DNA of 64,000 nt, taken from Candidatus Undinarchaeales archaeon. GTDB taxonomy: Archaea; SpSt-1190; JASMDC01. The translations under genes and the position numbers were made by a program. The notes beneath the pieces are model-generated. The model was not told where the DNA came from and did no database searches. It worked only from the letters and a program-made list of their open reading frames with translations. Positions 34,901-36,971 of the stretch are shown one piece after another (positions within the stretch are counted from its first letter, which is position 1; each line of letters opens with the position of its first letter). The stretch lies in the NCBI GenBank assembly GCA_030753015.1, contig JASMDC010000002.1, positions 64,001-128,000 of the forward strand, given 5' to 3'.

Positions 34901-36971
34901 CGGTATGAGTGAAGAGCGAGGAATCCCCCAGTACGAGCGGGTCCGCTGTGGTCGATACGGTCTTCGTTGTCTCGGGAGCAGTGAGCACCTCCGTGCTCGA
35001 GAGGCCGAGCTGGAGATGGGAGGATACTTTCAATGTGGGGGTCCCTTTCCGAAGGAGAGTGAAGTCCGACGCGGAGGAGCCGGACTCGCTGATGCTCACC
35101 TCAAGCACGTTGTAGCCATCGACCGCTGCTCCGGCGGGGAGGCTCCCCACGATGCGATAGAGCTTGGGTCCGTTGAGGTACACGACGTCCTTGCCCGAGA
35201 GAGGGGCGCCGTTCAGGGTCAGCGTGAAGAAGTGTGCGTTGTCAAGGTAGAGGAGGGTGGAGCCGGCGAGGCTTGTGATGTTGGCCATGAGTTCCACCTT
35301 CTCACCCAGGTTCCCTGTAAGGAGCAGAGGGCTGATCTCGGTGATACGAAGGTGCATCCCATTGGAGGTCGTGCTGGCCCCGGTGCAGTCCGCCACCGCC
35401 GTGAGGCTCTCGCCGGGAGGTACGGAGTCGGATCCCGTGCCCCAGAACACCTGTGCATCCTTCCCGGCACAGGATATGCTCGACATGGACGTGACGGGTT
35501 GAAGTGTCTTATGGGTCCCTGTGTTCGTGAGGTTGAGGAAGACCAGCACACGGTCGTTAAGAGCGGTGGCCGCGTAGGAGACCGTCGCCAGGACTGGTGT
35601 ACGGACCTGGACACGTAGCTGGAGCTCTTCCGTGTATCCCGTATCCGCCTCGAGTGTCACGTTGTAGACGTACTCGCCCTCGAGCGCTCCGTCGGGGACC
35701 TTGACCTTCAGGTTCGAGCGCACATGACATGGTGGATTCTGTGCTTCGTCAGGCCATTCGAACAAGACATCACATACCTCTACATTGAACTGTTCAGGAT
35801 TGGGGAGCGTGATCTCGAGTTCCCCTGGGCCGGACACCTTCCGTGTATTGAGCTTGAAATGGTTGAAGTCCACTTCCTCGAAGGCTTGTGTGATCTTGAA
35901 TCGCATCTCGGCCTTGTCGAATGACTTGAAGTACGTTCCTCCAGTATCGTCAGTGATATTGATCAGGTCATAGCAGTACTGGAAGTTCTCCATGAGGAGG
36001 CCGGGCCGGAACGTCTTGTCAGCACATACCGTCGAACCACCCCCGTCGGGCTCGCACTTGTCCGTGTACACACCGATCCACGAGGGATTCCCCGAGCAGC
36101 AATTGCTCTCGCACACTTCGATGTCCTCACCCTCGGCGTTAGGTACGGAGGAGCACAGGAGCTCACAAGTACTGCCGGAGCGGGAACATCGGGGACAGGT
36201 GGGTGGACAGGGGGAGCGGTACTTTGGGTCCTCTGGATCGGGCGTGAATCCGAACACCACGATGCGCTTGGCCTTGGCCTCGTCAGCAAGGTTCCGCATG
36301 CTGGCGTACATTCCGGTGAAAACCGCGGCATCAGTGATGACGTACACGAGCTTTAGGGCCCGCTCACGCCACCGGTTCTCAGGGAGTTGGCTTCCCCAGT
36401 CCGAGGCCCATTTCTCACGCACGGCGTACTGGATAGCATCGTAGGAGTTCTCCCGACACTCCTCCCCGCCAGTGATCCGGTCATAGATCGCTACCAGTCC
36501 CGATTGGATCGCTGCGTCCGCTGCGTATTCGTCAGCATAGAAGTCCTGGAAAGGGAGGGGCAGCTTGGGCGGGCCAAAGCTATGGGTGAACTGGTTGGCA
36601 AAGGGGACAAGGGCCACTCGGAAGTTGCCTTCGGACTTGCTCTTGAGCACCTCTGTGATGGCGTCCCAGGTGTTCCTGAACTCCTCGAGGTCGTCCCGCA
36701 TGCTCCCGGTATGGTCGATGACGAACACTGCATCGATGGGGCGCTGGAATGTCTCGTTGTTTGCCACATGGACGGTGAAGGTATTCTCCTCGCCCCATGA
36801 GAGCCCGGTCTCCAGCACAGGAACGGCCAGCGCGGGGATACCACAGCTGCCATCTGCGAGCACGCACGACTCTGTTGTGCCGGAGGAGCAATCGGACCCG
36901 GTCCAGCACGCGTGGTAAGCGCCCGACGCAAGGCTGACAACCAGCAGAAATACGAGGAAAGACGTTCGCAT
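31974..36971 (-). CDS. Large single-pass surface protein with integrin-beta-like vWA head (paralog 1)
   Basis: Signal peptide; [20 protein letters not shown] and [15 protein letters not shown]; Cys-rich insert, Ig-like stalk, TM, KKKKK and tail. Confidence 0.88.
   Translation of the reverse strand: [1665 protein letters not shown]

Follow-up and report, generated by a model that had tools for sequence, protein, structure and literature searches.

The head of the integrin beta subunit serves in textbooks as the model of an allosteric adhesion machine, and for a long time such heads were regarded as restricted to eukaryotes. The question raised by the locus described here is whether a headpiece of the same kind is encoded in an archaeon. 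The locus lies on a stretch of 64,000 nucleotides (hereafter the window) from a Candidatus Undinarchaeales genome (GenBank assembly GCA_030753015.1, contig JASMDC010000002.1, positions 64,001 to 128,000 of the forward strand), and the gene in question, at 31974..36971 on the minus strand of the window, encodes P0001, a protein of 1665 amino acids. From the list of open reading frames (ORFs) and the translation, Pfam matches and hydrophobic segments, P0001 is composed, in order, of a signal peptide, an integrin-beta-like head, a long immunoglobulin (Ig)-like stalk, a transmembrane helix and a short tail. The original prediction, made from the DNA letters, placed in the range 35860-36920 a four-cysteine cap, a hybrid-like segment and a von Willebrand factor A (vWA) domain carrying integrin-type metal-binding motifs, nested as in integrin beta within an archaeal single-pass protein. 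This range corresponds to residues 18-370 and ends just short of a beta-rich segment at residues 372-457 (35601-35858).

The analysis suggests that P0001 is probably an archaeal type-I membrane glycoprotein tipped by an integrin-beta-like headpiece, acting as a divalent-cation-dependent adhesin or receptor and drawn from a prokaryotic betaI-like clade. The sequence comparisons, structural models and locus data bearing on this reading are presented below, followed by the alternative explanations and the comparison with known systems.

Sequence likeness of the P0001 head to integrin beta

The vWA domain of P0001, including an insert, spans residues 79-367 (35871..36737, minus strand), as delimited by the Pfam VWA match, AlphaFold2, profile matches to the Protein Data Bank (PDB) and Foldseek. 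Its best vWA family in Pfam is the generic VWA (PF00092), with 30.7 bits (cut-off 23.8) over residues 80-243. In a single-sequence search of the PDB, 11 of the 20 matches at E<=10 were to integrin beta (beta-6 or beta-1), at E-values of only 0.09-0.17, the remainder being sensory rhodopsins aligned to the signal peptide and two alpha-L I domains. A three-sequence head profile (A1) gave 37 matches at E<=10, of which 32, including the first 20, were integrin beta, with beta-3 the best (E 8.8e-5, 24.7 bits). A four-sequence profile (A3) gave 47 matches at E<=1, 34 of them integrin beta, which also filled the first 31 places (best E 3.5e-5); vWA structures other than integrin beta appeared with this profile at E 0.37 (SpaC) and E 0.49-0.85 (the alpha-M, alpha-X and alpha-L I domains). 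Judged by these scores, the likeness of the P0001 head to integrin beta exceeds chance.

The alignment obtained with the A3 profile spans residues 85-252 of beta-3 and runs unbroken from a strand of the hybrid domain into betaI strand 1 and onwards through DxSxSMKDDL and WR..TDA, with low posterior probability in its middle part. HMMER pairs D86-H-T88-G-S90-M-R-D93-D94-L of P0001 (36687..36716, minus strand) with the segment of integrin beta-3 that holds the MIDAS (metal ion-dependent adhesion site) and the site adjacent to it (ADMIDAS). It also pairs TDA with the TTDA of beta-3, and the family pattern WRxxALKxxYVxTDA with the WR..TDA segment; in P0001 this motif occupies residues 201-215 (36327..36371, minus strand) and covers strand beta-4 and the candidate MIDAS Asp, D214. 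The roles of these positions in the MIDAS, the ADMIDAS and the synergistic metal-binding site (SyMBS) are presumed from the integrin literature. DxTxSMxDDL is invariant in all four family heads, and in wider alignments its D, S and M vary little or not at all; the W, R, T, D and A of the second motif are likewise invariant within the family.

A third element, the E171...E174 loop (36432..36461, minus strand), is a candidate counterpart of the integrin DAPE loop and of the second set of MIDAS/SyMBS-type ligands. Its C-R-E is invariant in the four heads and includes a cysteine, C172, beside the presumed MIDAS Glu; at this loop the consensus of the prokaryotic relatives reads GGGDxPE. The pairing of ECRE with DAPE keeps the D/E-x-x-E spacing and the DAI but was made by eye, HMMER being out of register here, and about 9-13 extra residues separate the loop from the WR motif in the family when compared with integrin beta. 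We infer that E174 is a MIDAS/SyMBS-type Glu. All the peptides of P0001 quoted in the original prediction were found in their places by a scripted check (residues 51-95, 171-180, 201-215 and 357-373, and PGELEITL at 383-390). Three of the four beta-3 strings set beside them lie within the HMMER alignments, and the fourth, the exit strand after helix alpha-7, is in none of them. The MIDAS and ADMIDAS ligands proposed there are thus borne out by alignment for DxTxSMxDDL and WR..TDA, and by visual pairing for the Glu loop.

Two cysteine-rich elements accompany the vWA. The alignment of the four heads places an insert of about 90 residues (244-335; 35967..36242, minus strand) between vWA strand beta-5 and helix alpha-6, with conserved motifs including CESxCCSG and CYDL. 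It was modelled with predicted local distance difference test (pLDDT) values of 33-66, and its best sequence match in the PDB, Dickkopf at E 0.7, is not significant. As the beta-5/alpha-6 loop of the vWA fold sits on the MIDAS face, the insert is probably a part of the surface that binds the ligand; integrins carry their specificity loop in the beta2-beta3 region, which is short in P0001. The small N-terminal cap (residues 22-43; 36843..36908, minus strand) is present as predicted, with cysteines at C22, C28, C36 and C43, and is conserved in the second paralog, P0002, and in a metagenomic relative, P0007. Its equation with the integrin PSI domain did not hold: no PSI family matches in Pfam at E<=1, its pLDDT is below 50, and the third paralog, P0009, lacks it, so that, from the family alignment, the cap is dispensable.

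Within the family the Pfam assignments vary. P0007 passes the Integrin_beta (PF00362) cut-off (35.0 bits against 24.8), its residues 86-242 aligning to profile positions 2-148 of 248, with VWA_4 (31.9) and VWA (21.3) behind; P0009 matches VWA at 25.9 bits and has no Integrin_beta match. A protein language-model atlas placed the P0001 head closest to a Myxococcota vWA cluster (0.83), followed by a chordate integrin-beta cluster (0.80), all values lying below 0.9 and serving as leads only.

Models of a beta-sandwich around the vWA

The arrangement of the segments before and after the vWA was examined in an AlphaFold2 model of residues 20-462, based on an alignment of the four family heads and 18 short vWA proteins. 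The model has a mean pLDDT of 72.4 and a predicted template modelling (pTM) score of 0.69, with the caveat that 94 of its 443 residues lie below pLDDT 50. Confidence is high for a hairpin preceding the vWA (model residues 33-39 and 43-52, pLDDT about 82), for the core of the vWA (about 85-95) and for four long strands that follow helix alpha-7 (model residues 353-438, up to 92); the Cys cap (model residues 1-30) and the Cys-rich insert (model residues 225-316) are modelled poorly. In the protein, the hairpin corresponds to residues 52-71 (36759..36818, minus strand), delimited by the model and HMMER, and the strands directly after helix alpha-7 to residues 372-457 (35601..35858, minus strand), delimited by the model; the two would be the N-terminal and C-terminal parts of one hybrid-like sandwich.

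Foldseek searches of the models were performed against 350,542 PDB chains. The full head gave 192 matches at E<=0.001, and all 49 matches listed belong to integrin entries (E 6e-13 to 1.4e-9) and are, judging by chain letter and length, beta-subunit chains. The alignments cover 466-488 columns in 47 of these and 426-429 in the other two, which are extended beta-3 entries. As a deletion control, residues 20-368 of P0001 were folded with a matching, nearly identical alignment, residues 369-462 being left out. In the truncated model the pLDDT of the hairpin (model residues 31-50) fell from 83/81 to 51/57 and both of its strands were lost, the vWA blocks remaining unchanged (94/90/91/90 in the full model, 93/90/92/91 in the truncated one). 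The hairpin is thus modelled confidently only when the C-terminal segment is present, as a shared sandwich predicts, and this is also the outcome of the AlphaFold check that had been proposed for the two flanks.

With the truncated model, integrin entries occupy the first 21 places and 40 of the 48 matches listed in Foldseek, at E-values of about 3e-8 and over only 206-230 columns. The additional columns matched by the full head indicate that the strong and exclusive integrin match comes from the flanking sandwich. The nested topology claimed in the original prediction finds its support in these models, which make it fairly probable that the vWA is set within a hybrid-like beta-sandwich. A complex prediction for the hairpin (head residues 27-60) and the C-terminal segment (head residues 347-443) gave 0.28, 0.37 and 0.27 against a mark of 0.32; it was run without controls and is not counted as evidence.

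Prokaryotic relatives, family and locus

With the A1 profile, 783 proteins were identified at E<=1e-3, and the 146 listed hits that fall outside the family score 42-188 bits, against 24.7 bits for integrin beta-3. Pfam domains were assigned in 81 of the 146, these being relatives of up to 1000 amino acids that fitted within 50,000 residues, and the other 65 were left out. Matches to VWA_4 were found in 77 of the 81, to VWA in 74, to Integrin_beta in 52 and to the Dictyostelium Sib-type vWA families (vWA_SIBA-E) in 13; 15 carry a subtilase domain and others M23, PKD, lipase or CsgG domains. The relatives look prokaryotic, judging by such domains (subtilase, M23, PKD, CsgG) and not by taxon. Their consensus reads DxVFVxDxTGSMxDDI ... 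GGGDxPE ... WRxxAxK...ITDAP. In 41 of the 146, the best local alignment begins within the hairpin region, at profile position 45 or earlier; none of the 146, in local hmmsearch with the family profile, aligns to the Cys-rich insert or to the segment that follows helix alpha-7. Some relatives (P0010, P0011, P0014) carry 4-7 tandem betaI-like vWA domains per chain.

By these comparisons, the motifs distinctive of betaI are the rule in a large prokaryotic clade, and the vWA of P0001 belongs to this widespread clade and is not an orthologue of eukaryotic integrin beta. As the motifs are common among the prokaryotic relatives, they do not by themselves single P0001 out. The original prediction had cautioned that similar vWA motifs occur in bacterial proteins, and the 52 Integrin_beta matches among the 81 scanned relatives make this caution the main qualification of the present reading.

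The family proper is tiny, consisting of three paralogs in one genus and one metagenomic protein. A word-indexed search of 5.8 billion proteins gave 4 head relatives, and when 1.84 billion cluster representatives were scanned in full by HMMER with the A1 profile, coverage of the head beyond the vWA was confined to four clusters, namely P0004, P0007, P0008 (a fragment) and P0009 (E 1e-216 to 2e-56). Of the 17 genomes of the phylum examined, two have the head, namely that of the window and that of a congener, and each encodes three paralogs. A profile scan of the genome contigs recovered a 93%-identical ortholog of the head locus (L001) along with 5 distant bacterial vWA loci; a scan of metagenome contigs with the four-sequence profile gave no new family member and 1 distant vWA locus. 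P0007, the sole member from elsewhere, is 31% identical, differs in composition and comes from one metagenomic contig of 21 kb. The genome of the window measures 3.85 Mb (98.9% complete, 5% contamination) and that of its congener 3.6 Mb, against 0.6-1.2 Mb in the remaining 15 genomes of the class; the two would represent a lineage with large genomes within a group known for genome reduction.

At the locus, three genes lie head to tail on the minus strand. P0002 (1677 amino acids; 26938..31971) starts 2 nucleotides past the stop of P0001, shares its architecture by coordinates and BLASTP-type alignment, and is 33% identical to it over an alignment that extends as far as about residue 1490. P0003 (1204 amino acids; 23280..26894) follows 43 nucleotides after P0002 and is a headless paralog with stalk, transmembrane helix and tail by BLASTP and Pfam, the latter finding no vWA in it. 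Its N-terminal region of about 420 residues has no Pfam match and a PDB sequence search with residues 1-430 gave 0 matches, so that nothing speaks for an alpha-like partner. The third head-bearing paralog, P0009, of about 1450 amino acids, is encoded on another contig of the same genome (G000:C37; L023 8876-13297), and besides lacking the cap it has a shorter Cys-rich insert. Directly upstream of it lies a gene for a PMT_2-type glycosyltransferase of 739 amino acids (L023 5978-8197, plus strand), a dolichyl-phosphate-mannose protein mannosyltransferase-like product that could glycosylate the third paralog; citrate lyase/ATP-citrate-lyase-like genes are also found in this neighbourhood.

The window carries genes for aIF2-gamma, aIF5B, Kae1/TsaD and a threonyl-tRNA synthetase (ThrRS) with the archaea-specific editing domain, from which it follows that the window is archaeal chromosome and P0001 an archaeal protein. 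A lone 5S rRNA gene is present at 9675-9790 (minus strand, 82 bits), and no other rRNA was found in the window. P0001 begins with a putative signal peptide read directly from the sequence (residues 1-19; 36915..36971, minus strand), and its only C-terminal run of hydrophobic 19-mers with a mean Kyte-Doolittle value >=2.0 is the transmembrane helix at residues 1584-1604 (32160..32222, minus strand), which is followed by KKKKK. Since these are a signal-peptide-like segment and one further hydrophobic segment, P0001 is, by its sequence features, a single-pass protein of type I whose ectodomain is very large, in agreement with the archaeal single-pass protein originally proposed. A Pfam match of Gram_pos_anchor (LPXTG-anchor) to the transmembrane helix reaches only E 0.2. 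The cytoplasmic tail of 61 residues (1605-1665; 31977..32159, minus strand) is rich in Gln, Gly and Tyr and ends in RR. All four vWA-bearing members, P0001, P0002, P0007 and P0009, have Gln/Gly/Tyr-rich tails with a C-terminal Arg-Arg (GRR, PRR, WRR and QRR), the C-terminus of the headless P0003 being different.

The stalk (residues 462-1583; 32223..35588, minus strand) is beta-rich with Ig-like domains near the membrane, as delimited by Pfam and by homology to P0003. Ig-like Pfam families match at residues 1363-1461, all of them near or under their cut-offs, and residues 877-1528 are homologous to the membrane-proximal stalk, transmembrane helix and tail of P0003 (BLASTP E 9e-27). HAP2-GCS1 gave a weak Pfam match at residues 1371-1461 (32589-32861, minus strand; profile positions 378-471, E 5e-4), and a HAP2/fusexin reading of this region was dropped, the score of 19.1 bits being below the cut-off of 27.4 and six generic Ig-like families of the HYDIN/CARDB/FixG type overlapping the match. 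Within the beta-rich stalk, an Ala-rich stretch at about residues 1090-1210 (33350-33700, minus strand) looks helical by eye, and its position is conserved in P0002 and P0003. N-x-S/T sequons number 18 in P0001, against 11.5+-3.1 in shuffled sequence, and 25 in P0002, against 9.6+-2.8, an excess that fits an exposed archaeal glycoprotein.

Proposed function and its alternatives

A divalent-cation-dependent adhesin or receptor is the most likely function of P0001. The head would be a vWA of the betaI subtype with a predicted MIDAS (D86-x-T88-x-S90, E174 and D214), an ADMIDAS-type pair (D93/D94) and a DAPE-like D/E-x-x-E loop, inserted between the hairpin at residues 52-71 and the segment at residues 372-457, which together would form one sandwich comparable to the integrin hybrid domain. 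It would be held out from the membrane by a stalk of about 1100 residues and anchored by the single C-terminal helix with its short tail. Metal bound at the predicted MIDAS would have its coordination completed by an acidic side chain that belongs to a ligand on another cell or surface, neighbouring metal sites would modulate the affinity and the Cys-rich insert would shape specificity. Since both ends of the vWA are predicted to join the sandwich, a shift of helix alpha-7 may be coupled to the orientation of the sandwich, as in integrins. The tandem arrangement of head-bearing paralogs with a headless one suggests a putative hetero-oligomeric stalk.

A more far-reaching proposal, speculative and on balance unlikely, would regard the complete integrin-beta head, that is, hybrid plus betaI domains with linked MIDAS, ADMIDAS and SyMBS-type sites, as a prokaryotic invention already in use among archaea as a membrane-spanning, conformationally regulated receptor. 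P0001, P0002 and P0003 would then constitute a cation-dependent cell-cell attachment device in a lineage labelled as a relative of the host-attached Undinarchaeota, and force or ligand binding at the MIDAS would act on the stalk and tail by way of helix alpha-7 and the sandwich. If true, integrin-style mechanotransduction would exist outside eukaryotes.

The head could also be read as an ordinary vWA placed in series with Ig-like domains, its likeness to integrin being limited to a DxSxS/DD motif common to many prokaryotic vWA domains and the nested sandwich being an artefact of integrin structures learnt by AlphaFold2. We consider this unlikely while granting it a real chance, for a number of results weigh against an integrin-like headpiece. 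P0001 reaches only 11.7 bits on the Pfam Integrin_beta profile and does not pass its cut-off of 24.8, the generic VWA family scoring 30.7, and P0002 matches no vWA family at its Pfam cut-off and has no Integrin_beta match. A six-frame PF00362 search of the window's own genome gave 0 matches at E<=0.01, a result that is uninformative in that the control genomes also gave 0. From rank 22 onwards, vWF-A3, TEM8, CMG2 and alpha-I domains appear among the matches of the truncated model (E 3e-7 to 1e-6), within about tenfold of the E-values for integrin beta, so that the vWA core alone appears only slightly integrin-like in fold. The C-terminal sandwich segment gave 7 matches to PDB sequences at E<=10, with no integrin among them and none meaningful, and a resemblance of this exit segment to the integrin hybrid domain in sequence is therefore not supported. 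The TM-scores of the full head in Foldseek are low (0.33-0.41, root-mean-square deviation 8-11 A), indicating a match that is not tight, for which disordered parts and a different angle between the domains could be the cause. The modelling of the flanks rests, moreover, on 4 informative sequences, and AlphaFold2 has seen integrin structures. Against the serial arrangement stands the HMMER alignment, which uses sequence with no structural prior, passes unbroken from the beta-3 hybrid strand into betaI and ranks integrin beta in all of the first 31 PDB matches. The dependence of the N-terminal hairpin on the C-terminal segment, the restriction of all 49 listed full-head matches to integrin entries over about 470 columns, and the pTM of 0.69 reached with one residue in five disordered, which implies a fixed arrangement of the two parts, argue in the same direction.

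A genuine evolutionary link to eukaryotic integrins, with P0001 either a relic of the ancestor of integrin beta or a gene captured from a eukaryote, is highly improbable. Integrin beta is the sole clear match among solved structures in both sequence and fold, P0001 resembles integrins in its type-I single-pass topology and short cytoplasmic tail, and P0007 lies above the Pfam Integrin_beta cut-off; however, with the same A1 profile the 146 listed relatives outside the family all outscore integrin beta-3, and the Integrin_beta matches in 52 of the 81 scanned relatives indicate that the betaI type is widespread in prokaryotes. P0001 also has no PSI, I-EGF/EGF_integrin or beta-tail family at E<=1 in Pfam, and its tail has Tyr-rich motifs but no NPxY, as that motif is commonly defined. 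No alpha-like gene (FG-GAP propeller) is present in the operon, FG-GAP repeat ORFs (18 matches at E<=0.01) being found elsewhere in the genome, on at least seven further contigs, as in many prokaryotes, and the family proper is restricted to one genus, in 2 of the 17 phylum genomes, and to four clusters among the 1.84 billion representatives. Only a small chance is given to the proposal that the three co-encoded giant proteins bind one another via the MIDAS, forming a cell-envelope or S-layer-like scaffold. The head-to-tail genes with gaps of 2 and 43 nucleotides, the stalk, transmembrane helix and tail common to all three products, the enrichment of sequons as in archaeal envelope glycoproteins and the PMT_2-type gene adjoining the third vWA paralog would accord with such a module; yet any contact between the paralogs is purely putative, the third vWA paralog stands alone on another contig with no headless partner, and the family is far too rare in the phylum for a core component of the envelope. 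The reading of P0001 as an adhesin or receptor with an integrin-beta-like head, drawn from a prokaryotic betaI-like clade, is therefore preferred.

On this reading, the locus adds an archaeal version to the bacterial look-alikes such as CglD, which were described only recently. Given the hundreds of betaI-like prokaryotic vWA domains together with this locus, the sequences suggest that the betaI signature motifs predate eukaryotes. The Cys-rich insert at the predicted ligand face and the giant stalk are additions of P0001's own. Heads of about 440 residues are small, expressible objects for probing the coupling of hybrid domains outside eukaryotes, and the three giant genes are prime candidates for a role in whatever the organism attaches to.

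Among known proteins, the nearest relatives of P0001 in sequence are the prokaryotic betaI-like vWA proteins assigned to VWA_4, VWA and Integrin_beta, which share the consensus DxTGSMxDD(I/L), GGGDxxE and WR...TDA and differ in architecture, with frequent fusions to subtilase, M23 peptidase or PKD domains. In the Gram-positive pilus tip adhesins SpaC and RrgA, too, a vWA with an adhesive role stands at the tip of a long stalk, and in RrgA it is inserted in an Ig-like domain, a nesting that resembles the one predicted here. Unlike these, P0001 has no sortase signal, and SpaC matched its head only at E 0.37 over 27 residues, no pilus adhesin being present among the 49 Foldseek matches listed.

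The Trichodesmium protein and the Dictyostelium Sib proteins resemble P0001, by their descriptions, in being non-metazoan and in carrying a betaI-type vWA without the canonical integrin stalk; P0001 differs from the Sib proteins in having no vWA_SIBA-E match at E<=1 in Pfam. The available part of one preprint gives the cyanobacterial (Trichodesmium) protein only one integrin-beta domain and mentions possible integrin-alpha-like propellers in Archaea (10.1101/2020.04.29.069435). From the accessible portion of another report, the Asgard 'integrin beta-4-like' and integrin-repeat families concern domains other than the head (PMC9258230).

The closest described case is Myxococcus CglD, presented in the accessible portion of its preprint as a beta-integrin-like lipoprotein with VWA, beta-sandwich and EGF-like parts, residues 644-1111 of which match integrin beta-3 (3FCS_B) in HHpred, and to which Trichodesmium is the only prokaryotic precedent named (10.1101/2023.10.19.562135). 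As far as that description extends, CglD and P0001 are both prokaryotic, Cys-rich surface proteins with a MIDAS and a vWA plus beta-sandwich that fold recognition matches to integrin beta-3; the role of CglD is adhesive, and adhesion is predicted for P0001. CglD differs, again by description, in being a bacterial lipoprotein without a transmembrane anchor and in carrying COMP-like calcium-binding and EGF-like repeats, whereas P0001 has a C-terminal transmembrane anchor and no lipobox, and no TSP_3/COMP or EGF family was found in it by Pfam. Targeted literature searches of main texts, supplements being excluded, found no published archaeal betaI/hybrid head and no archaeal version that spans the membrane and has a Cys-rich insert; the lists of CglD homologues and the ITGB tree in the supplement to the 2020 preprint (10.1101/2020.04.29.069435) could bear on this novelty.

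With the integrin beta headpiece itself (hybrid plus betaI; PDB 1TYE, 3FCS, 4UM8) the comparison is the most detailed. P0001 is set apart from it by a sequence similarity of only about 25 bits, by the insert of about 90 residues between beta-5 and alpha-6 and by a stalk of about 1100 residues with Ig-like domains. The two share DxS/TxS-M-x-DD-L and WR..TDA as aligned by HMMER, a D/E-x-x-E loop resembling DAPE by eye, and a vWA lying between two beta segments, united by the models in a single sandwich; integrin beta is also the best fold match of the head. They also have in common a type-I topology with one membrane-spanning helix and a short cytoplasmic tail, which places P0001 closer to integrins in its membrane topology than CglD.

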